Of a DNA stretch of 24,000 bases, positions 1 through 17,497 are shown piece by piece. Source of the stretch: Bacteroidales bacterium UBA6207 (GTDB lineage: Bacteria; Bacteroidota; Bacteroidia; Bacteroidales; F082); assembly GCA_002421995.1 (NCBI GenBank), contig DISP01000002.1:6417-30416 (forward strand). The letters run 5' to 3'. Position numbers and translations under genes: made by a program. Each line of letters starts with the position of its first letter. Position 1 is the stretch's first letter. Under the pieces are notes generated by a model that was not told the origin of the DNA, ran no database searches, and was given only the letters and a program-made list of their open reading frames with translations.

Positions 1-465
1 CATCTTCAAAGTTGACAGATATTCAACAAGCTTTGTTTTTAGGATTTCGAAGATCACATGAAAGTCTTTAACTAATTGAATACCATAAGATTTATTCGAA
101 TAGTTATCTTTGATGCAAGACTGATAATACTCGATCAATTGTTCGAAATAGGCTCGTTCAATATCTACCCACCTACTTTCTAAATAGTTAGAAAAAAGCT
201 TTTCAATAAATTCATGTTTAAAATTTAATTGTGGAGCAAAATAGCCACTTAAGAAGCCTTTTAATTCGCCAAAAGATTTAAACTCTTCCTTTATTTTAAA
301 AACTCCTTCTATCGAAATAAGTTCATCTTCAAATTTATTTTCTCGAATAGAGTCCATATGTGCCAAAAAGGCTTTGTTCATGTACCAAAGCATAAAATTT
401 GCATACCTTGTCTCCAACCCATGCGCCAAATCAAAGCCGTTTCCGATGATGAGCAGTTTATTCAT
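1..465 (-). CDS. abiH: AbiH-family abortive-infection protein, N-terminal 155 codons (3' end runs off the left edge)
   Basis: Not in the ORF track because it has no in-window stop. Hand translation of the reverse strand: ATG at 465-463, frame open to position 1 (no stop in any of the 155 codons), giving MNKLLIIGNGFDLAHGLETRYANFMLWYMNKAFLAHMDSIRE... The IIGNGFDLAHGL-T-Y-F N-terminus is the hallmark I associate with Pfam AbiH. The start lies 1 nt after the kinase stop (467-469). Confidence 0.7.
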   Translation of the reverse strand, partial: MNKLLIIGNGFDLAHGLETRYANFMLWYMNKAFLAHMDSIRENKFEDELISIEGVFKIKEEFKSFGELKGFLSGYFAPQLNFKHEFIEKLFSNYLESRWVDIERAYFEQLIEYYQSCIKDNYSNKSYGIQLVKDFHVIFEILKTKLVEYLSTLKM

Positions 466-466
466 C

Positions 467-2206
467 TTATAATAGTTTATGTTTGTTGGTCTTCAGTATC
501 ATTTCCTGTTTGCCAAAGGTGATTATATGCCTACCCAGAAGAAATATCTTTTGCTGTACTTTGACTCCGTCAACGTAAACACCTGACCAACTCCCCAGAT
601 CATAAAGCCAGACATTGTCCTTCTGGTTGATGATGACAAAATGCCTGCGGCTAACTTCCGGATCATCAAACAAGTCGAAATCGTTCTGCTTAAAGCCTTT
701 TCTTCCAAAAGAGATGATCATTTTGTTTTCTTCATATTCTTGATCACCAAGCTGAAAAACGATCGTATTTGTAGGTTTCAGGAAATGAAGAAACCTGTAC
801 TCATGAAAAAGCAATTTTGAACTCAGGAAAGGCTGGTTGTTTTGGTTCCAGCTTGCGTTGCTTTTCTCAGCATAAACCAAGTTGTTGTAATCCATAAATG
901 CTGTTGATTTGCCGGAAACAGCTTTTTCCTCATCGAACCTATTATTCAGAAGCTGAAATAAATTGAGATTTGATACAAAGACCTGTAAATCCGGAAACAT
1001 CTCAACAGCCAGCAGTGCTTGATCCAACCCTATCTCCCACCTGCCCGAAATGAAGTAGCATTGCAGTAGAAGGTTTAGCGCTTCTGCATCAAAGAAATGT
1101 TGATTCAAATAGCCCAGAAGCAGGGAGGTGGCCTTAGAAATTTGGTTTTCTGAGATGTAAACTTCTGCCAACTCTTTCTCAACACTGGCATTTCGGTTGA
1201 GTATTAAAGCATTTTCAAAACAGTTCCTGGCATGAACCAAATCGTGCGTTGCCAGAAAATATTTCCCTTTGAGAATGGTAAATCCTAAGTTTTTATCCGA
1301 TACAATACCGGAAAATAAGATAGACCGCACATTTTTCCATTGTCGGACCTGCAAATGAAATTGCAATTTCCGAACCAGCTTTTCTTCCTGCAATAACGAT
1401 TTCGTTAAAAATACCGGAATATTTCGGTTGATGAGCGCTTCACCGAGCTCTGACATCGTTTGGAATCGTGACTGTGGATTGTAATGACAGGCTTTTAAAA
1501 TGAAATGCTGAAGCCAGGGCTCAAAGTTCAGGATAGGTAAATCCGCATTCTTTACTTTTTGTACAATCTGCTCTTTTGAAAGTCCGGCAAAAGGATGTGC
1601 TTGATTCAGAAGCTCCAGTATGGTGATCCCCAGCGCATAAATATCTATCCGGCGATCGTCTTTGGTTGGATTTCCTTCCAGCATTTCCGGGGCTGAATAC
1701 AAAATGGTTCCAATGCTTGTATTCACTGTGCCAAAATCACTGATCTTGATTGTTTTATCCTCCGAAACCAACATATTGGCCGGTTTGATGTCGTGATGCA
1801 CAATTCCCTTTTCATGCAGGAAGTTAAACGCCTGGGCAAGCTGAATGAATATGTCGATAATTTGTCCGAAAGAGAGATTGTTATTACCTGCAAAATCATG
1901 GAGATTTCCCTGGCTGCAATACTCCATCACCAAAAATAAGCTATCCTTATCTTTAAAACTGCTTTTATAACTGATGATATTTTGATGGTTGATTCTCCCA
2001 AGGTGTCTGATTTCTCTGAGGATATTCACCTGATGAAACCTTTCCCTGCTGTGAAGCATTTTGATGGCAAATAGATTTTCGGAGATCGTTTCCTTTGCAA
2101 GATACACTTCTCCAAAACCTCCTTCTCCCAACGTTCGAATGTAGTTGTAGCCTTTTTGTACAAGGGTTGTTTTTATTGCTTCGTCCATCATTTGTTCTAT
2201 TCTCAA
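467..2206 (-). CDS. Hanks-type Ser/Thr protein kinase with central TPR-like helical region and C-terminal FHA domain
   Basis: 579-aa ORF. Kinase motifs: G-loop LGEGGFGEVY, FAIK lysine, catalytic HHDIKPANML, DFG (ISDFGTV), APE (YSAPEML). Helical repeats at about aa 300-440. FHA signature at the C-terminus: ISFGRK...VSRRHFVI...LYDLGSWSGVYVDGVKV. Confidence 0.9.
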   Translation of the reverse strand: MRIEQMMDEAIKTTLVQKGYNYIRTLGEGGFGEVYLAKETISENLFAIKMLHSRERFHQVNILREIRHLGRINHQNIISYKSSFKDKDSLFLVMEYCSQGNLHDFAGNNNLSFGQIIDIFIQLAQAFNFLHEKGIVHHDIKPANMLVSEDKTIKISDFGTVNTSIGTILYSAPEMLEGNPTKDDRRIDIYALGITILELLNQAHPFAGLSKEQIVQKVKNADLPILNFEPWLQHFILKACHYNPQSRFQTMSELGEALINRNIPVFLTKSLLQEEKLVRKLQFHLQVRQWKNVRSILFSGIVSDKNLGFTILKGKYFLATHDLVHARNCFENALILNRNASVEKELAEVYISENQISKATSLLLGYLNQHFFDAEALNLLLQCYFISGRWEIGLDQALLAVEMFPDLQVFVSNLNLFQLLNNRFDEEKAVSGKSTAFMDYNNLVYAEKSNASWNQNNQPFLSSKLLFHEYRFLHFLKPTNTIVFQLGDQEYEENKMIISFGRKGFKQNDFDLFDDPEVSRRHFVIINQKDNVWLYDLGSWSGVYVDGVKVQQKIFLLGRHIITFGKQEMILKTNKHKLL

Positions 2207-2228
2207 CCTATTTCATTCCATCTCTGAT

Positions 2229-2693
2229 TCACACCAATCTATGGATTGTTTTATCCGTTGTTTTAAGCAAATTTTCCAGTTTTCCTCCGGCACTGGCATA
2301 ACCTACCGTAACTTCATCAGCAAGTTGTATCATCATGGCATTTCTTATTTCTGCTGTTTGCTCTGTTACGCGTTTGACTTGCACATCAAACGGACTGATG
2401 ATTAAAATTCTGCCTTGCGCCATGGGTTTGATGAGCTCTGGTTCGATTTTCACTTTTAATCCCCTGGCTAATGCAATGATGATAGGCTGATTGCCTTTGA
2501 GTAAAAAATGCAACACATCTTTTTCTAATTGGCTATGAAATCCGCTGATGATACAATGGCCGGCCTCACGTTGCGCAATTGCCCAATCGTAGCATTTCAA
2601 AACAACCGTTGCAGGAATAGACCGGCTACATAAAAAAGCGCTTTTCTTTAGCTCTAATAATGCCTCATTTCCTATTAGTTGTTCAATCTTCAT
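2229..2693 (-). CDS. DprA/Smf-like (SLOG-type Rossmann) protein, short stand-alone form
   Basis: 154-aa ORF. FLCSRSIP...AIAQREAGHCIISGFHSQLEKDVLHFLLKGNQPIIIALARGL follows the DprA Rossmann pattern (GSR..G..vvSGlA.GiD..aH..aL..gg.tIaVl..Gl). The stop is 22 nt upstream of the kinase start, so co-transcription is likely. Assignment is by eye only. Confidence 0.55.
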   Translation of the reverse strand: MKIEQLIGNEALLELKKSAFLCSRSIPATVVLKCYDWAIAQREAGHCIISGFHSQLEKDVLHFLLKGNQPIIIALARGLKVKIEPELIKPMAQGRILIISPFDVQVKRVTEQTAEIRNAMMIQLADEVTVGYASAGGKLENLLKTTDKTIHRLV

Positions 2694-2751
2694 TTTACAT
2701 TACATCTTTAACTTGGACACTCTGACCATGTTTATGACTACCTTCATTATT

Positions 2752-2852
2752 AACTCCCCACTTTTTTTAATTAAGCTCCCCACTTTTAATTTTACTATTT
2801 CTTCTAATACAATCATTATCAGCAATTATATTAGGAACTACTCCCCACTTTT
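2752..2852 (-). promoter_or_regulatory. Three copies of AAAAGTGGGGAG (minus-strand reading) in the 166-nt gap between the AlbA_2 gene stop and the DprA-like gene start; candidate operator or promoter element
   Basis: The plus strand has ctccccactttt at 2754-2765, 2776-2787 and 2841-2852. A fourth copy sits inside the AlbA_2 CDS at 3106-3117. Function is inferred from position only. Confidence 0.35.
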
Positions 2853-2859
2853 TATTACC

Positions 2860-4575
2860 TTAAATCCTATGACCTCCTATAAAATCCTTACCTCGTTGTG
2901 TAATTACATAAGCTTGATTAGGGTCATTTGGATTTTCTGGAATGGTATAACTAATCAAATGATTGTCTTTAAGAGGTTTCACATAATCATCCCTATATCT
3001 TTCCTTACTTTTATATCCAAGAGAAGTTGCAAGTTCTTCCAGACTTATTGGTTCAAGTGTAAGCAATAACGTACTCAATATGATCTTCCCTCTTTTCTTT
3101 AATAACTCCCCACTTTTTTCTTCCCAGCTCTCTACCTTTTTCAGTTGCTGTATCTGTATATTGTTGTTTATCAGGAATCTTATCTTATCTAGCTCCATGC
3201 TTTTTTCTTCCCATTTCTTTGCCATTTCTATTGCCAACATGTCGATATCTACTATTTCTTTTAATTCTAAGTTTAATGGCAGACCCTTTAATAAATTCAG
3301 CTTTTGCTCACCTATTTGATCAACTGTTAACTGGGCTAAACCAATAAGCACATTAAATCTATTACCAATTCTCTCAATAATAATCGGAATAGTTGTAATA
3401 AAAGGATCGTCTTCAATAAATGAAGGTCTGGCACCAAGGGTATAGTAATTCAAGTATTTGCTGATATTCTTAATTCCTGAGCCAATTTCATCTGCCCAAT
3501 TCAGTTCGCTGAAAAACCGTCTGATATTTGGATTTTTAGGTTCTGCACTAAATGTATCTAGATCCAACGGACCTGTGAACCTTGGTTTGTTAGGGTTTTT
3601 TGCTTCGACCCGATCTGTGTAAATAATTATCTCACTTGCCAGTGAGGTATTATATTCTCTATGGATAATAACATTTGCTACAAGTTCCCTGAATATTAAT
3701 TCCCTCAAATCCTTTCTCTGTTCTCCTTCAATAAAGAACTTTTCAGGCCATTTTGATTTTACAAAATCTATAACTCTTATATAAGTATCAACAAGATTTG
3801 TTCTTAATGGAGGCAAACGGTCATCCCAACGGTCAAGGTTTTCCCTTCGTACCATAACATCCAATTTGTAAGCAGGCAGAATATTGCCGATTGTTTCGTC
3901 TTTTCCGAAAACTAAAGCAGCTGCAAGGGTTAATCCCTCTTCGCCAGTACTGAAATCTCTTCTGATGAAATTAACATCACGGAGTATCCTGTCGTTAGAA
4001 GCTGTAAGCCATGAATGCGTTGTGTTTATAGCAGCAATCAGCTTTCTGACTTTGTCAAAAACATCTTGGCTCAGATGTTCCATTTTCAGTTCAGGAAAAA
4101 TTTGAGTTTCAGTAAAATTCTGTCTTTTTCTAAAATAAATATCGCTTATCTGTCTATCATCATTTACTCTTATATCACTGTCGTTTTCTCTGTCGTAAAT
4201 AGTACCGGCATGTTTATGTACCAATGAGCTTACAGGAACCCGGATGTAAAGAATATTTTTTTCCTCATATTCAGCATCTCTGACAGGCAAGGCGTAGGGT
4301 GGACTTATTACATCAGGATTATTCAATGCAGTAACTATATTTTGTTTAAGCTGCATTATATTGGCTGCTTCAAGCCCAAGGACAATCCCGTCATCTGTAA
4401 CTCCCAATAAAATAATTCCTCCTTCTTTGTTCAGAAAAGACGAAACGGTATCGTATAAGGTATCAGGAACCCCATTTTGGGCTTCTTTAAACTCAATACG
4501 GATTCCTTCACCTTTATGTAAGAGTTGTTTTATTTCTTGGTGTGTTAACATAATCACTTCGATATTTTTTTCCAT
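2860..4575 (-). CDS. Schlafen-type AlbA_2 domain + HATPase_c_4 (RecG-C-like) + C-terminal wHTH protein
   Basis: 571-aa ORF. N-terminal GEGIRIEFKEAQNGVPDTLYDTVSSFLNKEGGIILLGVTDDG matches AlbA_2 (divergent AAA_4). Central RELIFRELVANVIIHREYNTSLASEIIIYTDRVEAKNPNKP matches HATPase_c_4. The C-terminus ISLEELATSLGYKSKERYRDDYVKPLKDNHLISYTIPENPNDPNQAYVITQRG looks like a wHTH. Internal WEEKS(M/G)EL repeat. An alternative start at M9 is possible. Confidence 0.8.
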   Translation of the reverse strand: MEKNIEVIMLTHQEIKQLLHKGEGIRIEFKEAQNGVPDTLYDTVSSFLNKEGGIILLGVTDDGIVLGLEAANIMQLKQNIVTALNNPDVISPPYALPVRDAEYEEKNILYIRVPVSSLVHKHAGTIYDRENDSDIRVNDDRQISDIYFRKRQNFTETQIFPELKMEHLSQDVFDKVRKLIAAINTTHSWLTASNDRILRDVNFIRRDFSTGEEGLTLAAALVFGKDETIGNILPAYKLDVMVRRENLDRWDDRLPPLRTNLVDTYIRVIDFVKSKWPEKFFIEGEQRKDLRELIFRELVANVIIHREYNTSLASEIIIYTDRVEAKNPNKPRFTGPLDLDTFSAEPKNPNIRRFFSELNWADEIGSGIKNISKYLNYYTLGARPSFIEDDPFITTIPIIIERIGNRFNVLIGLAQLTVDQIGEQKLNLLKGLPLNLELKEIVDIDMLAIEMAKKWEEKSMELDKIRFLINNNIQIQQLKKVESWEEKSGELLKKRGKIILSTLLLTLEPISLEELATSLGYKSKERYRDDYVKPLKDNHLISYTIPENPNDPNQAYVITQRGKDFIGGHRI

Positions 4576-4946
4576 GTATCATTTGAAAACAAGTAAGAAA
4601 CCAATTGTTTTCTTGCTTCCTCGACTGTAGTTTTTGATGCAATTGGAAAGCCGACAAATTTTGCAATTTCTCTTATTTGTTTCAATGTCATTTTGCTCAA
4701 TTGTTCCATCGAATCATCAATGGATATTGTAATTTTTTTAATTAATTCCTTGTCAACTTTAAGTCCTTTATTTTGTTTTTTTCTATCTGTGAAGGGTGCT
4801 GTTAATGAAATTTGTACTCGACCTCCGAACCTTTTAAGATTTTCAATGCTCTTCTCATCAAACTTATTTTTAAGAATTTCTCTCAAGTCATGAGGAAGTT
4901 CTTCTCCCGGTTTTAAAAATATATCATATTTTGGCATAATCTTCAA
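4554..4946 (-). CDS. Hypothetical 130-aa protein; the C-terminus resembles a SAP/Rho-N-like helix-extension-helix
   Basis: The ORF overlaps both neighbours (4924-4946 with ParA-like, 4554-4575 with AlbA_2), consistent with translational coupling. LSKMTLKQIREIAKFVGFPIASKTTVEEARKQLVSYL resembles SAP/Rho_N motifs (inference). No family recognised. Confidence 0.6.
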   Translation of the reverse strand: MKIMPKYDIFLKPGEELPHDLREILKNKFDEKSIENLKRFGGRVQISLTAPFTDRKKQNKGLKVDKELIKKITISIDDSMEQLSKMTLKQIREIAKFVGFPIASKTTVEEARKQLVSYLFSNDTWKKISK

Positions 4947-5925
4947 TTCTTTTAGTAATACGATTAATCAGATTCATCATGATTTCGCTGACCGATTGTT
5001 GGTCTGAGCCGGTGTGCCTTAATTCATACCATGCTGATTTATTAGCTCCCTGACTTAAAAATCTTGAGATGACATCAAGTCTTGGAACATGTGCCAGAAC
5101 TGGTTTATTGTCAATAATTTTCCTTTCAACAGGTTCAAGCTGATCCCGAATAGATTTGTATAATTCCTCAGTTGCCTGTTGCTGGTTGATTGTACCATAT
5201 TCATAACCACCAGCACGGTTCACGGCATTTAATACACAACCCAATAGGTACGGTTTTTCATGTTTTGGGATTTCTTTTACCCACTTTAATAAACGGGGCA
5301 TTCCATAAACAGAAATTTTATCGGGAATAGTAACCGTTAAGAAATAGGAGCAAGCCCTCAACATTGCCTGAGTCAGGTACATTTTATTTGGTGGACAGTC
5401 AATCAGTACATAATCAAAATCACTGAATGCATTTAACATGTTCTTGCAGTAATAGTATAAAGTATCATCAGCATTTGGTTTTTGGGTAATTTCCCTGATA
5501 ATGAGTTTGTCAAGCTCATCAATGTCGAATGAACCTCTTATCATTTTTAATTCTTTGGGAGCATGGATATCCGGAACAGCATCAATATATTGGCTGAACT
5601 TCACTTTAGCAATATTCGCCCATTTGTTTGGGGTAACAAGGTGGTAAATGGTAAAATCTGTTTTGTCAACTTTTGCAGGATCAACTCCGGCTGCAAGAGA
5701 AAGGCTGCATTGCGGGTCAATATCAATTAACAATACTTTCTTCCCTTTATTGGCAAGGTAGTACCCTAACAAGGTTGTAATCGTAGTTTTCCCAACCCCA
5801 CCCTTATAATTTGCAATGCAAATGGAACCGGGGTGTTTGTCAATTGGAAGATTCTCCAATTTTTGTTTGATGTTTTCAGGTATATCCATCTTACTTTTTG
5901 TTTTAATTTTCCTCCTCTTCCCCAT
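4924..5925 (-). CDS. ParA/MinD-family (deviant Walker A) ATPase with a basic N-terminal extension
   Basis: 333-aa ORF. NYKGGVGKTTITTLLGYYLANKGKKVLLIDIDPQ is the deviant Walker A; DYVLIDCPP is Walker-B-like. Overlaps the methyltransferase stop by 23 nt. An alternative start at M13 (MDIPEN) would remove the overlap. Confidence 0.85.
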   Translation of the reverse strand: MGKRRKIKTKSKMDIPENIKQKLENLPIDKHPGSICIANYKGGVGKTTITTLLGYYLANKGKKVLLIDIDPQCSLSLAAGVDPAKVDKTDFTIYHLVTPNKWANIAKVKFSQYIDAVPDIHAPKELKMIRGSFDIDELDKLIIREITQKPNADDTLYYYCKNMLNAFSDFDYVLIDCPPNKMYLTQAMLRACSYFLTVTIPDKISVYGMPRLLKWVKEIPKHEKPYLLGCVLNAVNRAGGYEYGTINQQQATEELYKSIRDQLEPVERKIIDNKPVLAHVPRLDVISRFLSQGANKSAWYELRHTGSDQQSVSEIMMNLINRITKRIEDYAKI

Positions 5926-8900
5926 TCTCCAACTCCTTCCCCATCCTGTATTTGATGTCGTAATTGATGATAAAATCCAACTCCTCTTCTGTGAAACCGT
6001 AGTGCTCCGCTAAAACGGTATCGATTTTGTCTATAATTTGCTTAGAAATTCTTGGTTGGAATACTTGCAATTTAAGCAGTCCATATTTTTTATAGTATGC
6101 TTCTTGAAAATAGGAGTTTTCTTGAAGGTCAATTAAAAGTCTTTCGGAAAGTTCAATGAGTTTATTTTTTAAATGAATACGAACTTCTGAAAGTGCAAAA
6201 GGGAAAGTTGATACTTCTCTTTTATTTAAGTTTCTACAATCTGAATAACCAATATAGTACCAAAAGAATAAAGATGAGAGATACGTAGAGTTGGAAATTA
6301 GTCTTTCATCATCATTTTTAAAACAAATCACTTTTAATTCGGATGTTATTCTAAGACTACCATCTGTTTCATAAATTTTAGGCGCTGTTTCCAGAAATTG
6401 AAGAAAATATCTCAGTTTTCTTGTGTGAAATACCTTGTGATTGCTTGAAGATATTATGTAGTTACTGATAGATTTGTTTGATTTCAGTTTCTTTATTATG
6501 TTGGTTTCATGTTTTGTACTTACTTTTGGGATGGAATCATTGTGAAATAGAGAGTTGTCAATTGTAGTATATTTTAAAAATCCGAATAAATACTCTCTAT
6601 ACTCAGAATTCCACCTATAATATTTAGTGGAATATAGGGCTTTTCCTGATCCTCTATTTGAAAGAAAAATTGATAGGTGCTTATCAACACCTTCAAATAG
6701 CTTTGCTGGACGCATAGAATATGAACTATACCACAAATTATTCATTTGACTATTTAATAAATCCCTTAAACTAGAAAATCCATCAGTACTAACAATCGAA
6801 ATTGGAACAATCATTCCAATAGAACCATTTTTATTGACTATTCTTGTTGACCGTTCAATTACATAGGCATAAAGATCTTTACATTCAAGAGTACTAAACT
6901 CCTTCAACTTATAATCAAAACTTGAAGCAGAATAAACAACATATGGCGGATTCCCAATGACCACATCAAAACCACCCTTATCGTGTATTATTTCATAAAA
7001 CTCAGCAAACCAATGGAAAGGTTGATGGGATTGTAACCATGTGTCATAATTATTGTCAGCTGTTTGTTTGTGCAATAATTGATTGAGCTCGTTGTTGAGC
7101 GCTTTCAATCGCGTGTTCAGTTCTTCCTTCGCTTGTTTAAAATCATGGTAATCATTGCTATATCCCAATTGGATATCTTTGTATCGGGTAAAGGCATGGG
7201 CAACAATGTCGCATTTTTCTTCAATCGCATCTTTCACGATCGACCCTTCCATGTCTTCAATCAGTGACCTGGAGAGTTCTGCCTCCGTTGCAAAGCCTAC
7301 GAGGGTGTTGCCGGCCCGTATGTTAAAGTCAATATCCGGCAGTGGCTCAAGACCCATATTGGGCTTGCGGTAGTCCACCTCCACCGTGGCCACCAACTTC
7401 AGAAACAACCGCAGTTTGGCAATTTCAACGGCCTCTTTCATAATGTCAACACCATAGAGGTTGCGCAGGATGATGCTTTTGTAGATATAATATTTCAGAT
7501 TGGGGTGGTGCTCGCTTTGTATTTCCTCCAACACCGAGCGAAAGTATTTGTGTTTGTTTCTGAGTGCCTGTTTATTGGCCTCGTTGTGGCGGTCTTCGTC
7601 TTCCACAAAAGCACGCATGCGCATAATGCAACCTTCATACAATGGTTCAAGGATGTTGAGCGCGGCAAAAAGAAATGCCCCTGAACCACAGGTAGGGTCA
7701 ATAATCGTAACGTGGTTCAGTGCTTTGTAAAAATGTTTCAAAAACTCAGGGTCTTCGGTGTTCTCAATCACATCTTGTGCAAACTGTCTGATATCGAGGT
7801 TGTACGTAATGAAATCATTAATTGTTTTAATGTCACCTCCTTCAATTTTAGCGCTGACATCTGCATACCTGCCGCGTCGGTCAACCACTTCACGCCAAAT
7901 CTCTGTTGGCAAGGCATGTGTTTCCAGTGCCGGACGATTCCATTCTTTGCGTCGTTCCAACAATCCCGGACTGTTGGTGTCAAGGCCTGCTTCAATCTCT
8001 TCAGGCAATGGCAGCGTGACGCCTTTTTTAACTGCTTCATAAATATATTGGTCGCCACTTTGTTTTAAATTATGCCAAATCCCGCTCTCTGATGTCATTG
8101 CTTGCGGATATTGCCTGCCGGTTTCTTCAAACAAATAAGGCAGAATGCAATTCTTGCTGATGTAATCAGTAATATCTTCCTTGGTATAATAGGCACCCAT
8201 ATCTGCCCGGTAATTGATATATTTTTCAAAGATATAACCAATCACATCGGGGTTGATTTCCCTTCCTGTTGCAGATGCGCGGGTGTCGAGATGCCATTCA
8301 TACTGATCAAAAAAGTCGAACACACGTTCAAAGGCTTTGTCTTCAATATCAATGGATTGATACATCTTTTCCAACTCGTGTTCATCAAACAGGCCGCCAT
8401 TGAGATAGGGAATTTTGCCAATCTCGATTTTCACAGCCGCAGTCTGGCTTGCTTGATTCAATCCCTTGTGGAACAAAACAAGTAAGAAGTCACGGTAAAA
8501 GGAATAAAACTGATCCTTCCCTTTTTTCTCCTGGCTCGCGATCAGCTTATCCCGCAGGTAGTTTCGGTTATTATCAAGGAAACCTTTTTTCTGAATAAAG
8601 TAGCAAAACATGAGTCGGTTGAGCATCAGCGAGGCATACCACTCCTGATTCACCCTGTCCTGAATACCTTTGATAAAAGTAAGAAATGCCGTATGCTCTC
8701 TTTTGAACCGATCGTAGAAGGCTTTGGTAATCCTGTCGGCATTGGCATGAAAGTTTTCGTTCATTCTTTTCTTCACATCCACAATGGTAATCTTGTCCTC
8801 CTCAGCCATTTCGAAGAAAACGCCCGATGCACGCTGAAATAACAACTCAGGGTCTTGCGACACATGATAACGCGTTTCAGTCACTTTGGCCGGTTTGCCT

Positions 8901-9220
8901 GATTGACGAACCACAAGCTGCCAGATTTGTTCCTGGTTTTTTGAATCCACAAAAATGATCAGATGTTCCTGAAACAACTTTGTGACTTTGTTTTCAATTT
9001 TCTTTCGGATACTGTAATCCGGAATTGTTCCGGAAATTGTGGGCTGGCAGGTGAAAATCTTGAAACCACTCTTTTCAGCTACTGCTTGCAAGGTGTAGGT
9101 TATTTCATCCACCACAATGGGCTGCCTTGTGCGGTCGTTGTTCCATCCCATTTCGTTGAACAGCTCTCTAAAGCTGAACATACGGATGTGATTGAAAAAT
9201 TCTTTCTTTTTTAATGCCAT
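5903..9220 (-). CDS. Large gamma-class N6-adenine DNA methyltransferase (Eco57I/TaqI-like) with a long N-terminal domain and a ~340-aa C-terminal target-recognition region
   Basis: 1105-aa ORF. SAM motif I IIDPTCGSGAFLFAALN (DPTCGSG encoded at 7679-7699). Catalytic motif IV VVIGNPPYVV (NPPY encoded at 6941-6952). The region C-terminal to NPPY is non-conserved-looking and AT-rich. Confidence 0.9.
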   Translation of the reverse strand: MALKKKEFFNHIRMFSFRELFNEMGWNNDRTRQPIVVDEITYTLQAVAEKSGFKIFTCQPTISGTIPDYSIRKKIENKVTKLFQEHLIIFVDSKNQEQIWQLVVRQSGKPAKVTETRYHVSQDPELLFQRASGVFFEMAEEDKITIVDVKKRMNENFHANADRITKAFYDRFKREHTAFLTFIKGIQDRVNQEWYASLMLNRLMFCYFIQKKGFLDNNRNYLRDKLIASQEKKGKDQFYSFYRDFLLVLFHKGLNQASQTAAVKIEIGKIPYLNGGLFDEHELEKMYQSIDIEDKAFERVFDFFDQYEWHLDTRASATGREINPDVIGYIFEKYINYRADMGAYYTKEDITDYISKNCILPYLFEETGRQYPQAMTSESGIWHNLKQSGDQYIYEAVKKGVTLPLPEEIEAGLDTNSPGLLERRKEWNRPALETHALPTEIWREVVDRRGRYADVSAKIEGGDIKTINDFITYNLDIRQFAQDVIENTEDPEFLKHFYKALNHVTIIDPTCGSGAFLFAALNILEPLYEGCIMRMRAFVEDEDRHNEANKQALRNKHKYFRSVLEEIQSEHHPNLKYYIYKSIILRNLYGVDIMKEAVEIAKLRLFLKLVATVEVDYRKPNMGLEPLPDIDFNIRAGNTLVGFATEAELSRSLIEDMEGSIVKDAIEEKCDIVAHAFTRYKDIQLGYSNDYHDFKQAKEELNTRLKALNNELNQLLHKQTADNNYDTWLQSHQPFHWFAEFYEIIHDKGGFDVVIGNPPYVVYSASSFDYKLKEFSTLECKDLYAYVIERSTRIVNKNGSIGMIVPISIVSTDGFSSLRDLLNSQMNNLWYSSYSMRPAKLFEGVDKHLSIFLSNRGSGKALYSTKYYRWNSEYREYLFGFLKYTTIDNSLFHNDSIPKVSTKHETNIIKKLKSNKSISNYIISSSNHKVFHTRKLRYFLQFLETAPKIYETDGSLRITSELKVICFKNDDERLISNSTYLSSLFFWYYIGYSDCRNLNKREVSTFPFALSEVRIHLKNKLIELSERLLIDLQENSYFQEAYYKKYGLLKLQVFQPRISKQIIDKIDTVLAEHYGFTEEELDFIINYDIKYRMGKELENGEEEEN

Positions 9221-9224
9221 AGTA

Positions 9225-12200
9225 TTATGTGTTTTTCAGGCCTAAGGAGCATATAATTTGAGGTTCTTTCCCCGGCATTTCATCCAGATTAACAATACAA
9301 AGTTTGTCTTCTTCCCGCAGCGAAACAACAAGATTGGCCAGATCATCATCAGATATCCCTGACTTTAACTGGCGGTTCAGTGTTTCTCTCGCAAACTCTT
9401 TAAAAGGATATTTAAAAATGTCGTCAATCGCTTTCTTTAATCCCTCATTCACAAACAGGGTGTTTTCGTATTCCTTGCAATACCTGTCAAGACGCATGTA
9501 CACACGGTACTTCACGCCGGTTTTCTTACCAAGCGATCCTCCTGTGTTTTTTTCATCATCCCGGATAAATTTGATCCCGGTTTTCACAAGTTCGTGGTGC
9601 TGATCAAGCTTATGACTTGGTTCTGCGTATGCATTACAGGCAGCAGCTTTAAGAATGGTAAGCTGTGATTGTGTGATGATACTTCCTTTGGTGTTGACCC
9701 ACGCCAGCACATCATTTTCATCATAGGTTCGGGTGTAAACAATCACACCTTCTTTGTCCTGATCAAGCTCATTGTTTTTGGTGGCATACACCACATTGGG
9801 CAAATTGGGGATGGTACGCTTCAGTTCCGGGTTGGCATCTGTGGCATTTTTCCAAATTTGATAGGCAAACGAAGCCAGATCCACTTCACTGTCGCCCTCA
9901 TCATCATCCAGCATTCCTGACTTTTCGTTGTATAGATCCTCGATATTGATAGGGTCACCGTCAAAGAATACCTCATCTGAACCCACCACCTCGGAATTTT
10001 GTCTGATGCGGTGTGTTAGCCTCCGACGAAGGTTAATGATTTGTTCGATACCATCTTCCGGCAAAAATGAATAGCAAAGTATTTCATCTGCTTTCTGCCC
10101 AATGCGATCCACACGGCCAGCACGCTGTATCAAACGGATGATAGCCCATGGCAGGTCATAATTGAGGATGATGTGGGCGTCCTGCAGGTTTTGTCCTTCA
10201 CTAAGCACGTCTGTTGTAATTAGCACCCTGATTTCGTTTCCGGTGACAGGGAATTTATTGCTCTGTGGGCTGAACCGCTGAGCCAGCAATGTAGGATTCT
10301 CACTATCCCCGGTCACAAACTCAAGCTTTTGAACATGTCTTTTTTTCAAATATGAGGCAATATATTTAGCCGTGTCAGCAAACTGGGTAAAAATCAACAC
10401 CTTTTCTGTTTGGTGCTTCCCAACAAGCAAGCGGTGAAGTGCATTGAGTTTTCGATCTTCATCTACATTCCATTGTTGGCATAATTTGAGTATCTCCAGG
10501 ATTGATTTGCTGTCACCGACAAGTTGTTTAACCAATGCAGGCACAAATAGCTCACTGCGAATCCAATCAAACTGATCTTTGTATTTCTGTCCGGCATATA
10601 AGTTATAAACCAAGGCAGCGTTTTTCAAATAAACCTGTTCATCCAGGGTGAACTGAATAAGGTTTTCATTTTCACCATCATTGTCAGTGTCATCATCTTC
10701 AAGAAATCCATCAAGATTTTGCGAGATATTTTTACCAATGGGTACCGGAAGACGATTTTGAATGGCATATAAATAAACATAGTTGCGCAAAATATGCCTG
10801 CTCAACGAGATGAGGAAAGCAAACCCACTACTTTCGAGTCGTTTAAACAGATTGGTCCGGCAAAATCCCATGAGGCGCTTACCGGCCCGCGACAGGTTCT
10901 GTATCACCACTTCTTCTTCCTTGCTTGGCTTGACGCCTGACTTTAGATTGATATAATTTCCAAGGCCATAGCGCGGCAAATCCAGCCCATTCACTGAATC
11001 AACAACCTCCTGTGAATACAACTGTGCATATTGATCGGACGGGTTGTTTGCATCAAAATCGAATTCAATTTTTTTGGCAATTCTGTCGGGGAAATACGAT
11101 CGGGTTCCATCAGAAAATGTCAGGTATTTTCGTTGTTTTTCAGGATCATTCACTGCATAGTTTTCTTTGATAAAGCTTCTGGTTCTTCTCACCAGATACA
11201 ACCGCATCAATTCCCGCCAGTCATCTGCAAAATGACTTTTTTCGAAAGCTTTAATACTCCTGATAAATGTTTCGGTATGCAAGGCAGAAAACTGAACCTG
11301 TCCGCCGATCATCCCTATGTAATTCTCAGGACTAATTCCCAAATCCTTGTCATCGGCAATGAACAACCTGAGCTGGTTCGACAAATCCGTATAGGACTTA
11401 TTATAAGGAGTGGCCGAAAGCAAAATAACCTTGCTGTCGTTCTCTTCAAGGTACGCTTTGATGGCACGATACCTGCTTCCCTGATCATTTCGCAGGTTAT
11501 GACTTTCGTCGATGATAACCAGCTTAAATCGCTTCAGATCAGGAAGTTTTCGCTGCACTTCCCCGATCGAGATCACATTCGCCTTGAGATCATACCTGTT
11601 AATATAGGCAGTCCACATCGTCTTTAAATTGGGTGGACAAATGATCAGGCTTGAAAAGAAAAAATCCTCTTCAAATATTTTTGCCAGGGCACATGCTGTA
11701 ATTGTCTTTCCCAAACCAACGACATCTCCAATAAAAACCCCTTCTCTGCTGTTTAATTTTTTAGCAGCAATCAACACTGCTGCCTGCTGAAATGACAGTA
11801 ATTCTTTTCTGAATACAGCGGGAATTTTAAATTCCGAAAGCCCGGCACGTGCTTCCTGCGACAAATGATAAGCCATCTTCAAATAAATGTGATAAGGCGA
11901 TACCAATCTGTCTGCTGCCCAGCTATTATCTATGATTTCAATGAGTTCCTCTGTAATATCAAAGCACCAGCGGTCATTCCAGCGATCATCAAACCAACCT
12001 GACAATTTCAATGCAGCGTCCTGATCCAGCACATCAATGTTCAACTCTCCCTGTAAAGCCAAGCCCGCAAGTGTAAGGTTGCTGCTACCCAGAAATCCAA
12101 CCACAGGTACCCGTTTGTCATTACTATAGGCCAGATAAAGTTTGGCATGCAAAGGATATCTCAAATGTAGTTTAACAACTACTTTCCCTTCTTTCATTTG

Positions 12201-12584
12201 CGCACTGAGCTTCCTAAGCGCTTTCTCATCTGCATCAGAAGGTGTTCCAATTGTCAGCTGGTCACGAAATTCCTGTGCCAGACGTTTTTTAAGTTTAGAA
12301 GCCTCATTTTGATCGAGGATGATATCATCGTCTGATCGAAAATACTCGCGTAACAACTCCACAGGGAGTTTTTGCATACCCACCAAAAGCCTGCATGTGC
12401 GGTGAAGCATATCATCATTTTCCATTACCATCTCACCAGGCAGCAAGTCAATTTTTGCATCAATCTCTTTCCATCCACGCAAATTAAAATACCCCACACA
12501 AAAGTCAGTGCGCTGCGACACCTCCAATGTTTCATTCAGAGCCTGTGTGAGATGGTTCTCAATGTTGTCGTATATTCTTGGCAT
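9225..12584 (-). CDS. PLD-family (single HKD) nuclease domain fused to an SNF2/DEAD-like helicase
   Basis: 1119-aa ORF. N-terminal HAKLYLAYSNDKRVPVVGFLGSSNLT is the HxK...GSxN PLD motif. Helicase motif I GDVVGLGKTITA, motif II VIIDESHNLRN, motif III LLSATP. C-terminal lobe LITTDVLSEGQNLQDA and QRAGRVDRIGQ. The stop is 4 nt before the methyltransferase start. Confidence 0.9.
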   Translation of the reverse strand: MPRIYDNIENHLTQALNETLEVSQRTDFCVGYFNLRGWKEIDAKIDLLPGEMVMENDDMLHRTCRLLVGMQKLPVELLREYFRSDDDIILDQNEASKLKKRLAQEFRDQLTIGTPSDADEKALRKLSAQMKEGKVVVKLHLRYPLHAKLYLAYSNDKRVPVVGFLGSSNLTLAGLALQGELNIDVLDQDAALKLSGWFDDRWNDRWCFDITEELIEIIDNSWAADRLVSPYHIYLKMAYHLSQEARAGLSEFKIPAVFRKELLSFQQAAVLIAAKKLNSREGVFIGDVVGLGKTITACALAKIFEEDFFFSSLIICPPNLKTMWTAYINRYDLKANVISIGEVQRKLPDLKRFKLVIIDESHNLRNDQGSRYRAIKAYLEENDSKVILLSATPYNKSYTDLSNQLRLFIADDKDLGISPENYIGMIGGQVQFSALHTETFIRSIKAFEKSHFADDWRELMRLYLVRRTRSFIKENYAVNDPEKQRKYLTFSDGTRSYFPDRIAKKIEFDFDANNPSDQYAQLYSQEVVDSVNGLDLPRYGLGNYINLKSGVKPSKEEEVVIQNLSRAGKRLMGFCRTNLFKRLESSGFAFLISLSRHILRNYVYLYAIQNRLPVPIGKNISQNLDGFLEDDDTDNDGENENLIQFTLDEQVYLKNAALVYNLYAGQKYKDQFDWIRSELFVPALVKQLVGDSKSILEILKLCQQWNVDEDRKLNALHRLLVGKHQTEKVLIFTQFADTAKYIASYLKKRHVQKLEFVTGDSENPTLLAQRFSPQSNKFPVTGNEIRVLITTDVLSEGQNLQDAHIILNYDLPWAIIRLIQRAGRVDRIGQKADEILCYSFLPEDGIEQIINLRRRLTHRIRQNSEVVGSDEVFFDGDPINIEDLYNEKSGMLDDDEGDSEVDLASFAYQIWKNATDANPELKRTIPNLPNVVYATKNNELDQDKEGVIVYTRTYDENDVLAWVNTKGSIITQSQLTILKAAACNAYAEPSHKLDQHHELVKTGIKFIRDDEKNTGGSLGKKTGVKYRVYMRLDRYCKEYENTLFVNEGLKKAIDDIFKYPFKEFARETLNRQLKSGISDDDLANLVVSLREEDKLCIVNLDEMPGKEPQIICSLGLKNT

Positions 12585-12676: not shown

Positions 12677-14227
12677 TTATTCTCCATTACCTTTCAGCTC
12701 CTCAAACTTCGCTTTCATGGTTGGGTTTCCGTGGGTTAGCTTTTTAATTGTCAAATCCTCTGTCTTATCATTTGCAAGCCTTAGATTGTTTTCAGAAGAC
12801 TGCAAAGCCTCCTTGGTTTTCTGCAGATGAACAATTGTTTTATCAATTTCATCAATAGCCTCCTTAAATTTCCTGCTCGCCAGAAAATAATTTCGTGAAA
12901 AGCCTTCTTTGAAATTGTTTATTTTCTCTTCGAAATGGGTGATGTCAAGATTTTGGCTTCTCACCAGATTGAGTTCTGCTTTGTACTTCAACGAATTCAT
13001 GGCTGCATTGCGCAACAGGGTGATAATGGGAATAAAAAATTGAGGCCGAACCACATACATTTTTTCAAACTTATGCGAAACGTCCACAATGCCGGAGTTA
13101 TACAGCTCGCTTTCAGCTTCTAACAGCGTGACAAGCACGGCATATTCGCACTTCTTTTCGGCGCGGTCCTTGTCCAGCTCCCGAAAGAAGTCTTCGTTCC
13201 TTTTCTTGGTCGCCGTTTCATCGCCTTCATTCTTCATCTCAAATATGATCGAGATGATTTCATTTCCGGCATCATCAGATTCACGGTAGATAAAATCGCC
13301 CTTGCTTCCCGTGCGGGCATCGTTGTCCTTCTCAAAATAAGCTTTCTGAAAAGCCGTGGCGCGCAGTTTGTTAAATTCATTTTCGCAGTGCTGTTCCAGT
13401 GTTTCGCCAATCATCTTTGTCGAGAGTTTGAGCTTCATATCCTTGCGCAAAGCAATTTCTTCATCTTTCATTCTGATGATGTCTTCTTTCGTCTTAAGCT
13501 CGGCATTGAACTTCTCAATCAGCGACTTTTCATACAACTGCTTTTCTATTTCTTTATTCTTCAGGTCAATAGCCAACTCATCGCGTTCTTTTTCAATTTT
13601 TTGAACTGCCTCCGTCACACTGAGTTTTTTCTCTAATTCGGTCTGTTCCAGTTTGGCTTTCATCTCAGCCAACTCCGCCTCCTTTTGGCTGAGTTGCCTG
13701 GTAAGCTCTCGTTCATTTCCGGCCTTCAACTCGGCAATAAAGCTGTCTTTTTTTGCCAGCTCTTCCTGCAAAGTGTTTTTAAGGTTTGCCTCCAGCAACC
13801 TGACCGTATTTTCTTTTTCAAGTTCTTTCTGCCTGATTTGATTGGCCAGGGCATCTTTCTCTTTCTCCAATTGCTTGACCGCCTCGTTCACTGTCAGTTT
13901 CTTCTCGTTTTCGGCATTGTCAATTTTGGCCTTCATTTCGGCTATCAGTTGCTCTTTCTGTGACAACTGATCCGCAAGTTCACGTTCGTTTTTGGCTTTC
14001 AGCGCAAGAATTTCCTTATCCCTGACTGCCAGCTCTTCCTGCATCGTGTTTTTAAGCTGCGCCTCAGCAAGCCTGACAGCGTTTTCTTTTTCATTTTCTG
14101 CCAGTATCAGGCGTTTTTGCAGTTCGTCATCAAACTGCTGGTCTCTAACTTGCTTCAGAATGCTGGCAAACCCGGCTTCATCCACTTTAAAAGCTGTTTT
14201 GCAATTCGGACAGATAATATCGTTCAT
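12677..14227 (-). CDS. DUF2130-type protein: N-terminal Zn-ribbon, long coiled coil, C-terminal PD-(D/E)xK-like nuclease fold
   Basis: 516-aa [35 protein letters not shown] is the typical DUF2130 N-terminus. The coiled coil is K/E/L-rich. The C-terminal [27 protein letters not shown] gives a D...ExK arrangement. Confidence 0.8.
13541..14089 (-). repeat. Intragenic tandem duplication, 2 x 273 nt (2 x 91 aa), within the DUF2130 coiled coil
   Basis: Protein aa 47-138 ([21 protein letters not shown]...) and aa 138-229 ([21 protein letters not shown]...) align along their whole length. At DNA level, attttctttttca at 13808-13820 recurs as gttttctttttca at 14081-14093, offset 273. Confidence 0.75.
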
Positions 14228-14254
14228 GGGGTTATGGTTTTTTTATTGATGGTG

Positions 14255-14395
14255 GTTAGTAATGTTTTGGCGCTTGGCATAGTGGCGGATTTCGGAGTAC
14301 AAAACTGTCAATACACCACAAATGTTGATTTGAAAAACTGCACTTCAATTTACCACTGAACCCGCCATTACGCAAACCCGCAGTTGGCTGCTGAT
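14255..14395. repeat. Copy A of a ~140-nt hairpin-forming intergenic element (unclassified, MITE/REP-like)
   Basis: The core at 14314-14356 matches 19696-19738 at 33 of 43 positions, ungapped. The right arm cgccattacgcaaacccgcagttggctgctg matches copy B at about 21/31. The inner stem gcatagtggcgg (14277-14288) pairs with ccgccattacgc (14362-14373). Confidence 0.55.
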
Positions 14396-14544
14396 GTTCT
14401 CTCTTTCGTGTCTGTAAACCATTGTCCCTGTTGAGTTTTACTGTCTTTTTATTTGTCGAGTTGGTCTGTGCGATTGCGTATTTTTTATTTTCAGAAAGGG
14501 AGGATATTTTTTTAAATTCAATTTTTCTTGGGTCGGAAAGGTGG

Positions 14545-14601
14545 AAGCACATTTGCAAGCTTTGCACTGTGCTTGGGCTTGTGAGGCTTGCAAATGTGCT
14601 T
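14545..14601 (-). terminator. Perfect 16-bp inverted repeat (25-nt loop), 20 nt downstream of the qatD stop; candidate terminator or protein-binding palindrome
   Basis: aagcacatttgcaagc (14545-14560) is the exact reverse complement of gcttgcaaatgtgctt (14586-14601). No U-tract follows on the minus strand, so it is not a canonical intrinsic terminator. Confidence 0.4.
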
Positions 14602-14620
14602 ACACCTGTCCGTTGCTCTT

Positions 14621-15352
14621 TCATTTCAATCTACCTATTAAATTAAAGAAGTTGTTTTTAATTTGTCTCTCAACATCAACATAACTTAACTGTCTAGTTT
14701 CTGAAATATAACTCAAAACCTCCTTAATGTCCCAAGGGTTTATTGGCCTTTGATTTATTTGAATAAATGGGCCATCGCTCTCAGTTAATAATCTGTCTAA
14801 TGGAATTTTAGAAATAATATCCGTTCCATTCTTTGATTTTATCATTTTAGGATTTATTGAAAAGAAATAACCCGCCTCAATGATTGAATCAATTAGTTTT
14901 AATGAACCAGAGTACCAATGAAAAATAGCATTCTTTACTCTATATCTCTTTAGCAGTTCTAAAATCTCCTTTTCGGCTTTTCTTGAGTGAATACTTAATA
15001 TTTTTTTCTTGTTCGAAACGGTTTGCAAAATCAATTCAAATGATTCAATTTGAATTGACTTAGTATTTATTCCATCTGATGAAAAGTCTAAACCTACTTC
15101 ACCAATGTAAGATGTTTTGTCAATGTTTTTCAGGAATAAGTTAAATTCAGATTTATGGTTTTGTGCAAATAATGGATGCAAACCCAAAGCGATTCTACAG
15201 TTAGCGGTTTTTTGAAAGAATGGATATCCTTGTTCAAAATGACTTGGAAGGTTTGTCATTGAAATAACACTAATCCCTTGCAATTCACATTCCCTGAGAA
15301 TCTTTTCGGGGTTTTTATATAAGTCAATATGGCAATGAGTATCTATTAACAT
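14621..15352 (-). CDS. qatD: TatD-family metal-dependent hydrolase/DNase, QatD of the QatABCD system
   Basis: 243-aa ORF starting MLIDTHCHIDLY (the TatD HxH motif). Its start overlaps the qatC stop by 1 nt (TAATG). It is the fourth gene in the canonical Qat order. Confidence 0.8.
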   Translation of the reverse strand: MLIDTHCHIDLYKNPEKILRECELQGISVISMTNLPSHFEQGYPFFQKTANCRIALGLHPLFAQNHKSEFNLFLKNIDKTSYIGEVGLDFSSDGINTKSIQIESFELILQTVSNKKKILSIHSRKAEKEILELLKRYRVKNAIFHWYSGSLKLIDSIIEAGYFFSINPKMIKSKNGTDIISKIPLDRLLTESDGPFIQINQRPINPWDIKEVLSYISETRQLSYVDVERQIKNNFFNLIGRLK

Positions 15353-16689: not shown

Positions 16690-17497
16690 CGCAAATAATT
16701 TTTATGACTGAATCAAAAATTTTCTCAATTTCATTTTTACCCGATTCTCCTTTCCAATCAATTTTCGACACAGGTCTTTGAGTGTTCAGTACTTTAACTT
16801 GACCGAGAATATCTTCCTTTATAATTCTAAAAGTTTCTTTAGAATTTTCAGCTCCTTTTTGTTGTTCAATTTTCTCTTGAAATCTTTGTGATAGATGCTC
16901 GAAAATATATAGCCCCCAAAATCTGCATAACATATCACCTAGTCCCATATCATCAACCATTTGCTTTACTAAATCTTCGAATTTTTGAAGGTCATTATTA
17001 GCAGAAATAGCAAGTTCATTCATAACTTCACAAGATGCTTTGTTCGCTGCCGTCTCATCCATTCCCTCATTTGATTCACTGCAATACACTAAAAGAAAAT
17101 CTATAACTTCTTGAAAGGTTTTACCAGCTAACTTGCCAAAACCTATTTCAACTAATGTTTTTTCTAATCCTTGACTTCCAACACTACTAAAGAATCCAAC
17201 TATTCTACCAGCTGATTTTCTTCCTGCCTTCCCAATCGATTTAGATTTTCCACTAACAATTTTAGACCTGCCGCCACCTGTTCTAACAAGATTGGTAAAA
17301 GCAGACTTTAGGTGTGATGCCCTCCTAATTTCAATCTTTTTATAAATTTTTACTGCATCATCTTGAGAAATGGTTTGATTCTTTTCTAACTCTTTTTCTT
17401 TTTCAACCGTTTTTGAAATATGAGTTATAGTTTTACTTAAATCACCCCATTGTGGTTGATTTGGTACACCTGGTGTCATTCTTTGAGTAGTTCCCAT
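16676..17497 (-). CDS. qatB: QatB-position protein (no recognisable domain)
   Basis: 273-aa ORF between the KAP NTPase and the QueC-like gene, with a 1-nt TAATG overlap with qatA. Assigned by position and size only. Confidence 0.6.
   Translation of the reverse strand: MGTTQRMTPGVPNQPQWGDLSKTITHISKTVEKEKELEKNQTISQDDAVKIYKKIEIRRASHLKSAFTNLVRTGGGRSKIVSGKSKSIGKAGRKSAGRIVGFFSSVGSQGLEKTLVEIGFGKLAGKTFQEVIDFLLVYCSESNEGMDETAANKASCEVMNELAISANNDLQKFEDLVKQMVDDMGLGDMLCRFWGLYIFEHLSQRFQEKIEQQKGAENSKETFRIIKEDILGQVKVLNTQRPVSKIDWKGESGKNEIEKIFDSVIKIICDEKD

Follow-up and report, generated by a model that had tools for sequence, protein, structure and literature searches.

Do the three genes crowded at the left end of a 24,000-nucleotide (nt) stretch of contig DISP01000002.1 of Bacteroidales bacterium UBA6207 (assembly GCA_002421995.1, positions 6,417 to 30,416; hereafter the window) form one defense system, or do they belong to several? 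The genes encode a small protein with a DprA-like fold, a Hanks-type Ser/Thr kinase with TPR and FHA regions, and the abortive-infection (Abi) protein AbiH, and a preliminary description of the sequence had grouped them as the sensor, kinase and effector of a single operon. Comparison of the locus with its relatives led us to a different reading, to which we give about an even chance of being correct: the region is a mosaic island of separately evolving defense modules, in which a portable kinase-AbiH cassette has docked 3' of a methyltransferase-based system. The modules of the mosaic are probably co-transcribed here.

Organization of the locus

Three minus-strand genes fill positions 1-2693 of the window and are tightly spaced, as first described. 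The interval of 1 nt between the kinase stop codon and the AbiH start codon also stands. The interval between the DprA-like gene and the kinase, previously given as 22 nt, is 37 nt because the ATG at 2191, which is the start used by gene callers on identical contigs and by homologues, replaces the TTG at 2206. Contigs identical to the window were found in public assemblies via the DprA-like protein, and an exact look-up of the 579-amino-acid kinase (TTG start) gave no match. One identical contig, L001 (L and P numbers label the contigs and proteins compared with the window), reaches 4.7 kb past the window edge. Leftward extension on this contig showed that AbiH is indeed cut by the edge, and recovered the complete gene for a protein of 352 amino acids (L001 12229-13287). 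The features on which the argument turns are as follows.

465..1, minus strand: 5' part of the AbiH gene (PF14253), 155 codons, cut by the window edge
2191..467, minus strand: Hanks-type Ser/Thr kinase-TPR-FHA gene (Pkinase, FHA, TPR_19), 574 amino acids from an ATG
2206..467, minus strand: the same gene from an alternative TTG start, 579 amino acids, as called mechanically
Within the kinase gene, minus strand: kinase domain at about 1454-2149, TPR-like middle at about 797-1399, FHA domain at about 512-715
2192..2228: 37-nt spacer with the recombination junction, mapped by blastn
2693..2229, minus strand: DprA/SLOG-fold gene, 154 amino acids, assigned from predicted fold and conserved context

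A recombination junction upstream of the kinase

Mapping the window's contig against its relatives by blastn revealed two blocks of identity that stop short of one another. Nucleotide identity to L178 is 93.7% over a block that opens at the end of the methyltransferase gene and closes about 30 nt short of the DprA-like stop codon, with no similarity beyond. The block matching L007 (86.4% identity) opens 9 nt upstream of the kinase ATG, spans the kinase and AbiH genes and runs on for about 105 nt after AbiH; the window and L007 also have a common downstream chromosomal flank (75% identity). The blocks therefore place a junction within window 2192-2228, in the spacer that separates the DprA-like gene from the kinase gene. 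By these alignments, the kinase and AbiH are a separate block of 2.9 kb that moves apart from the DprA-like gene. L007 carries the closest relative of the window kinase (93% identity), and there the kinase comes after a dCTP deaminase defense gene, with an SMC-like ATPase and a methyltransferase farther upstream.

Pairing of the kinase with AbiH

The pairing recurs among close relatives of the kinase. A neighbor-joining tree identified one monophyletic kinase clade (51-100% identity) in which AbiH or its remnant lies directly 3' of the kinase in five of six loci: the gene is intact in the window, L007/L087, L167 and L168, survives as a remnant in L008 and is missing from L176. The AbiHs of the 51% sub-clade are just 40% identical to the window AbiH. 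Among the loci sampled, the pairing is confined to this clade. We examined kinase neighborhoods in 80 genome loci (own calling of open reading frames (ORFs), phmmer and blastp) and found AbiH behind the kinase in L007 alone, apart from a 165-amino-acid remnant in L008; about 75 of the 80 loci are without AbiH. The survey of AbiH homologues for neighboring kinases that the preliminary description had proposed gave a divided answer, with the recurrence in this one kinase clade on one side and, on the other, no kinase beside 79 of 80 metagenomic AbiH relatives (29-71% identity), the sole exception being the L007 lineage. In 26 of 47 loci, AbiH sits at tight spacing 3' of genes of many kinds, and beyond the 71% group the nearest AbiHs (49% identity) are preceded by a ResIII helicase or a different gene. 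Kinase-linked and solo AbiHs match in length and invariant residues. A literature search found no published kinase-AbiH cassette and no AbiH + kinase + FHA pairing, in line with the preliminary description, which was aware of none.

The closest metagenomic kinases (P0004, P0006, P0003, P0021 and P0010) were also checked for context. P0004 (51% kinase identity) has the order SMC-like ATPase, 162-amino-acid gene, kinase and AbiH, and P0006 (51%) the order methyltransferase, RhuM, EVE, kinase and AbiH. Nmad3 replaces AbiH in P0003/L176 (53%), where the intact kinase lies after the C-terminus of an SLFN-type protein and a DprA-like gene that are 63% and 50% identical, respectively, to their window counterparts. 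P0010 (45%) has no close partner. In P0021/L169 (44%), McrBC and SIR2_2 (a weak match) precede the kinase and a Piwi (pAgo) gene adjoins (L169:980-5926, 9726-11837); the SIR2_2-like gene is a second, different SIR2-type neighbor of the kinase family. The remnant in L008 (7725-8222) is a 165-amino-acid ORF that keeps the first 30-40 residues of AbiH followed by unrelated sequence, with an SLFN_AlbA_2/HATPase_c_4 protein after it; AbiH has thus decayed here, whereas the kinase in front of it is intact. Two of the kinase-AbiH loci, L007 (3-3766) and L167 (1-2924), share an upstream methyltransferase and SMC-like ATPase. The two ATPases are 33% identical to each other and match mad3 weakly (1.9e-9), which may point to a more extensive MADS-like arrangement in this lineage.

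Profile searches bear out the assignment of AbiH. The window fragment matched PF14253 at 4.8e-13 (50.2 bits), and the full protein from L001 matched at 3.1e-32 (113.1 bits; cut-off 30.9), with amino acids 4-309 covering model positions 1-258 of 260. In a Foldseek search with the predicted structure (mean predicted local distance difference test, pLDDT, of 85.5), the top 22 matches were SIR2 subunits of SIR2-HerA (SIR2-HerA/Nezha), with a best E of 3e-4, probabilities of 0.35-0.99 (best 0.99) and TM-scores of just 0.33-0.40. A SIR2-like fold agrees with the published assignment of AbiH to the SIR2-like proteins (bioRxiv 10.1101/2024.09.18.613514; PMC13064643). In Lactococcus, AbiH was isolated by cloning as a lone abortive-infection gene (Prevots 1996, cited in PMC13064643).

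The kinase-TPR-FHA family

The window protein is a Hanks-type kinase with a C-terminal FHA domain, as had been proposed. It matched Pkinase at 1.5e-53 (182 bits; cut-off 31.7) and FHA, at amino acids 498-565, at 4.7e-12 (46.6 bits; cut-off 20.7), and the catalytic residues K44, D134 and D152 and the FHA residues G496, S514 and H517 are invariant among 29 homologues. The TPR region, also part of the original claim, is weak in the window sequence (TPR_19, E=0.008) and clear in homologues. We recovered 839 kinase homologues at E below 1e-10, the complete ones nearly all of about 570 amino acids with kinase, TPR and FHA regions. Relatives are encoded in at least 544 species genomes of many phyla, including Bacteroidota, Proteobacteria, Planctomycetota and Acidobacteriota. 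The TPR-FHA half was found solely behind a kinase domain, at about positions 260-575 of kinases of about 570 amino acids. We considered the possibility that it is also joined to other enzymatic heads and rejected it, as every full-length match sits in a kinase. A subgroup of 687-700 amino acids (P0013, P0016, P0017, P0023 and P0024) has a conserved N-terminal extension of about 120 amino acids; that this is a fused DprA-like domain was likewise rejected, the extension being detectably related to none of the window proteins. Searches of plasmids with the kinase and the DprA-like protein (tblastn) gave no match. IMG/VR holds just one full-length relative of the kinase, the family being essentially absent from viral contigs, and for this reason a phage-borne origin of the kinase was rejected. 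The literature on Hanks and FHA anti-phage kinases yielded no published description of the family or of its bias to the 3' end of methyltransferase operons.

The neighbors of the kinase are highly diverse across the 80 genome loci, but its usual place is within methyltransferase-based defense operons (Hma and type IIG-like systems) or at their 3' end. Tightly coupled genes on its 3' side encode Metallophos phosphatases, HmaC, an MNT-type nucleotidyltransferase, SNase, a YgjP peptidase, an N6_N4 methyltransferase, Nmad3 and several unknowns. In four Bacteroidota-type loci (L011, L034, L066 and L081), the kinase stop codon overlaps the start of a 221-amino-acid Metallophos (calcineurin-like) phosphoesterase gene; these could be kinase-phosphatase pairs resembling the KKP module. 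In 13-14 loci (L037-L041, L045, L047, L049-L051, L054, L067, L082 and L083), the kinase is found within or beside Hma operons, and in at least six of them directly between HmaB (a DUF1156 methyltransferase) and HmaC (HEPN-DUF499). The Hma-linked kinases fall mostly in one cross-phylum clade of the neighbor-joining tree, suggesting that an Hma-plus-kinase subtype may have been transferred as a unit. Hma operons are a published hotspot of defense gene insertion (PMC11232893).

The DprA-like gene and its upstream system

The earlier assignment of the 154-amino-acid protein to a DprA-like Rossmann protein holds for the fold and not for the family score. Its AlphaFold model (pLDDT 84.8) matched, in this order, ShosA 8zva (E 7.5e-8), DprA Rossmann domains, YpsA, LOG and Moco-carrier proteins. 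The score against Pfam DNA_processg_A (PF02481) is 18.3 bits (E=1.4e-3), under the 29.6-bit cut-off, and that against TIGR00732 is 16.9 bits (cut-off 191); the match to the PADLOC model for PsyrA (1e-9) covers model positions 123-257 of 398 only. By its predicted structure and these scores, the small protein has a DprA/SLOG fold and is not a DprA orthologue. We found 1826 homologues, with more than 120 clusters at 73-86% identity that are all 148-178 amino acids long except for one partial entry of 229 amino acids. Such conservation is far above that of the kinase or AbiH.

The genomic context of the DprA-like gene is conserved as well. We sampled three independent relatives (84%, 79% and 74% protein identity, within L178-L191), and all three had the gene order PLD-SNF2 helicase (about 1100 amino acids), MmeI/Eco57I-type methyltransferase (about 1090 amino acids), variable insert, HATPase_c_4 protein and DprA-like gene. 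The insert is ParA plus a 127-amino-acid protein, PDDEXK_3, DUF4062 or none, and the N-terminus of the HATPase_c_4 protein swaps between SLFN_AlbA_2 and cytidine deaminase. Neither a kinase nor AbiH was present downstream of the DprA-like gene in these three contexts; in the relatives it is followed by proteins of 130 and 309 amino acids and then a mer operon, by DUF4349 or by a second SNF2 helicase. Positions 12584..2860 of the window carry the same cluster upstream of the DprA-like gene; its features are given below, after the gap between the two.

2694..2859, minus strand: intergenic gap of 166 nt with repeats and a degenerate palindrome (motif count)
4575..2860, minus strand: SLFN_AlbA_2-HATPase_c_4-wHTH protein (Pfam/PADLOC)
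4946..4554, minus strand: 130-amino-acid protein (Pfam/PADLOC scan of the upstream cluster)
5925..4924, minus strand: ParA-like ATPase (Pfam/PADLOC)
9220..5903, minus strand: MmeI/Eco57I-type methyltransferase (Pfam/PADLOC)
12584..9225, minus strand: PLD-SNF2 helicase (Pfam/PADLOC)

The DprA-like gene is thus the conserved last gene of an upstream restriction-like system, outside the kinase-AbiH cassette. DISARM core genes are absent from the system at window 2229-12584, and our literature search found no published description of a helicase/methyltransferase system that terminates in a DprA-like gene.

The 166-nt gap at 2694-2859 does carry the repeated motif noted before. There are four exact copies of CTCCCCACTTTT, three in the gap and the fourth at 3106-3117, inside the next gene, against 0.17 expected, and none of 100 shuffled sequences reached four. 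The coding-strand form of the motif is AAAAGTGGGGAG, whose gap copies are at plus-strand 2754-2765, 2776-2787 and 2841-2852; a degenerate palindrome lies at 2712-2729. The AAAAGTGGGGAG repeats and a palindrome just before the start codon (TTGGACA-N3-TGTCCAA) are kept upstream of the DprA-like genes of L178, L181, L184, L186 and L176, L176 having two copies of the variant AAAGATGGGAGTT. The repeats and palindrome are kept in relatives that have neither the kinase nor AbiH, and are part of the upstream region proper to the DprA-like gene. Both resemble operators and may be bound by the wHTH/HATPase_c_4 protein encoded next to them. A 38-amino-acid ORF is called across the gap repeats by some gene callers, but two copies are in different reading frames.

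Competing explanations for the locus

In the mosaic that we favor, the two-gene kinase-AbiH cassette would have entered by recombination where the upstream restriction-like system ends on its 3' side. The kinase would be self-sufficient, with its TPR region acting as the sensor, its Hanks kinase domain arresting the cell, and its FHA domain either holding the kinase auto-inhibited or docking phospho-substrates. By analogy with Stk2 or PD-T4-6, it could provide a second-line back-up of the abortive-infection type. AbiH would be an ordinary full-length, SIR2-like, NAD+-consuming Abi effector able to work alone. We infer that the kinase is self-contained because most family members are without AbiH, and that AbiH is self-sufficient because nearly all of its relatives are without the kinase. 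The decay of AbiH in L008 and its replacement by Nmad3 in L176, both behind an intact kinase, also count for the mosaic. So does the lack of monophyly among the kinase-linked AbiHs, which were united in none of 100 neighbor-joining bootstraps of a tree whose backbone is poorly resolved; we read this as no support for co-divergence with the kinase rather than as proof of independent capture. Other observations weigh against separately evolving parts. Within the AbiH clade, AbiH is spaced 1 nt from the kinase or overlaps it in four loci, plus one remnant, of six, even though the upstream genes differ, and this linkage exceeds what random island packing predicts. More broadly, kinase clades follow the type of partner system, as in the cross-phylum Hma clade, and the kinase was without close same-strand neighbors in just 4 of 59 evaluable loci; a functional tie to the neighbors would account for both. 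The tight linkage in the clade is an argument for a true two-gene system, in which the DprA-like gene is uninvolved, the TPR region senses infection, and phosphorylation by the kinase together with FHA docking activates or releases an AbiH NADase. We entertain this explanation tentatively, as possible rather than probable. The pair does move as one nucleotide block, a different SIR2-like gene (the weak SIR2_2 match) is directly upstream of the 44%-identical kinase, and, had AbiH been recruited twice, selection could be acting on the pairing. It is opposed by the scarcity of the pairing in both the kinase and the AbiH surveys, by linked AbiHs that have the length and invariant residues of solo ones, by the retention of the kinase where AbiH decayed or was swapped, and by the cloning of the lactococcal AbiH as a single gene.

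The position of the kinase raises the question of whether its partner is instead the upstream system. A large DNA methyltransferase is encoded upstream on the same strand in 30 of 57 evaluable kinase loci and downstream in one, every AbiH-clade locus with sufficient sequence is preceded by a methyltransferase-based system, and kinases of the cross-phylum clade sit between HmaB and HmaC. The kinase could then be a regulatory or guard subunit of the methyltransferase-based system, like PglW or MAD6, with AbiH as an unrelated passenger. Such a subunit would adjust the activity of the helicase-nuclease/methyltransferase or be triggered by phage inhibition of that system; we consider either version unlikely. 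The best PADLOC model for the kinase is mad6 (3.3e-60), and MAD6 is needed for MADS defense (bioRxiv 10.1101/2023.03.30.534895), but the NCBIfam cut-offs for both MAD6 and PglW are missed widely. Furthermore, the same upstream system exists at 94% nucleotide identity without the kinase, as do all three sampled DprA-like contexts; the kinase is accompanied by at least four unrelated types of methyltransferase, which argues against a specific partnership; and 27 of the 57 loci have no recognized methyltransferase, although detection was crude. A broader version would make the kinase-TPR-FHA protein a portable phospho-signaling switch that plugs into varied defense cores and either shields the methyltransferase first line from phage inhibitors or gates a downstream effector, which we regard as rather unlikely. 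The cores served could, with similar reserve, include Hma, the MmeI/Eco57I-type methyltransferase-helicase, SIR2-like AbiH or SIR2_2, and the Metallophos phosphatases, and an AbiH-type effector might conceivably be gated through docking of FHA to phosphothreonine.

The original three-gene reading, in which a nucleotide or DNA signal detected by a DprA/SLOG protein is relayed through the kinase to activate AbiH, fails because the triad is conserved in no other genome. No second instance appeared among the 80 kinase loci, the 80 AbiH loci and the three DprA-like contexts. The adjacency of the three genes with no terminator-like signal between them (scan hits equaled the shuffled expectation), the SLOG fold confirmed by the predicted structure, and the DprA-like genes found near kinases of 100% (the window), 53% (L176) and 33% (L063) identity all speak for it. 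A scan for sigma-70 promoters and terminators, which covers no Bacteroidota promoters, gave counts equal to the shuffled expectation. In L176, however, the gene that comes after the DprA-like gene and the kinase is Nmad3 and not AbiH, and in L063, the only one of the 80 genome loci with a DprA-like gene near the kinase, the order differs (kinase, 182-amino-acid gene, DprA-like gene). The recombination junction separates the DprA-like gene from the kinase, each of the three sampled relatives has the DprA-like gene as part of the upstream cluster, and the 93%-identical kinase-AbiH pair has the dCTP deaminase gene upstream instead. We consider a functional triad highly improbable.

Flanking genes and island border

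The window also holds a complete defense system. QatABCD occupies 14624-19377 on the minus strand, with PADLOC matches to QatA (1.7e-107), QatB (6.8e-9), QatC (3.7e-93) and QatD (5.9e-67). Between it and the helicase/methyltransferase system (12677-14624, minus strand) are genes for a 516-amino-acid DUF2130 protein (2.8e-85) and a 122-amino-acid ORF with no family match. Beyond the left edge, the G+C content of L001 climbs from 30-35% across AbiH to 45-55% in the next few kb, followed by unrelated genes. A Y1/IS200-like transposase-related ORF with short tandem DNA repeats (L001:13445-13906) lies 3' of AbiH, where the G+C content starts rising. The ORF and the G+C rise mark the island border.

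Comparison with known defense systems

AbiH with a SIR2 fold and defense kinases are already known kinds of protein. The comparisons above replace a three-gene model with three units: a kinase-TPR-FHA family, a kinase-AbiH cassette and a DprA-like-terminated system. The cassette is a rare natural case of a SIR2-like AbiH translationally linked to a possible sensor, and the system upstream has a strongly conserved terminal SLOG-fold gene. Should the kinase turn out to act as a guard or switch, it would join the few kinase-based control layers of bacterial immunity (PglW, MAD6 and Stk2); were the switch reading true, it would be a general and previously unrecognized regulatory layer.

In at least six related loci, the kinase occupies the HmaB-HmaC site where other defense inserts are reported, as set out in the accessible part of the Hma source (PMC11232893), which does not mention a kinase insert; the window itself is without Hma genes. 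The 154-amino-acid protein has the Rossmann (SLOG) fold of ShosA and DprA, with ShosA as its best Protein Data Bank match, as in ShosTA/PsyrTA, but is without a PRTase domain and instead ends a helicase/methyltransferase cluster. No ShosT (PRTase) or PsyrT (RecQ-like) toxin gene lies beside it, its neighbors being the kinase and the SLFN_AlbA_2/HATPase_c_4 protein. Like PglW of BREX type 2 and MAD6 of MADS, the window kinase is a Ser/Thr kinase encoded in an operon with, and downstream of, a large DNA methyltransferase. It differs from them in its non-kinase domains, scores 120.5 bits against MAD6 (NF047741) and 60.8 bits against PglW (NF033442), below the equivalog scores of 460 and 990, respectively, and stands behind a system that also occurs without a kinase. 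PglX-type models match the upstream methyltransferase weakly (best E 3.5e-15), and PADLOC and Pfam scans of the window ORFs turned up no PglY or PglZ (BREX-2) and no MAD7 or MAD8 (MADS).

The window AbiH resembles the lactococcal AbiH (PF14253, of the SIR2-like "SIRim" subfamily) in its full-length PF14253 match, similar size, SIR2-like predicted fold and location in a defense island. The two are distantly related only, and the window gene is abutted translationally to a kinase gene, as seen in 1 of 80 sampled relatives. An abortive-infection type gene placed inside a restriction-modification operon or at its end has a precedent in PrrC/EcoprrI, where the Abi effector is embedded in the restriction operon as a back-up; to our knowledge, PrrC/EcoprrI has no homology to the window genes. 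The kinase itself is most readily compared with the single-gene kinase defenses Stk2 (Staphylococcus) and PD-T4-6 (E. coli), with which it shares a Hanks-type kinase domain, intact catalytic residues and a defense island setting. The PADLOC models for PD-T4-6 match its kinase domain (1.1e-52, model 5-271 of 327, no curated cut-off) and leave the TPR-FHA half uncovered. The window kinase differs from both by this fixed TPR and FHA C-terminal half and by its usual embedding in the operons of other systems.

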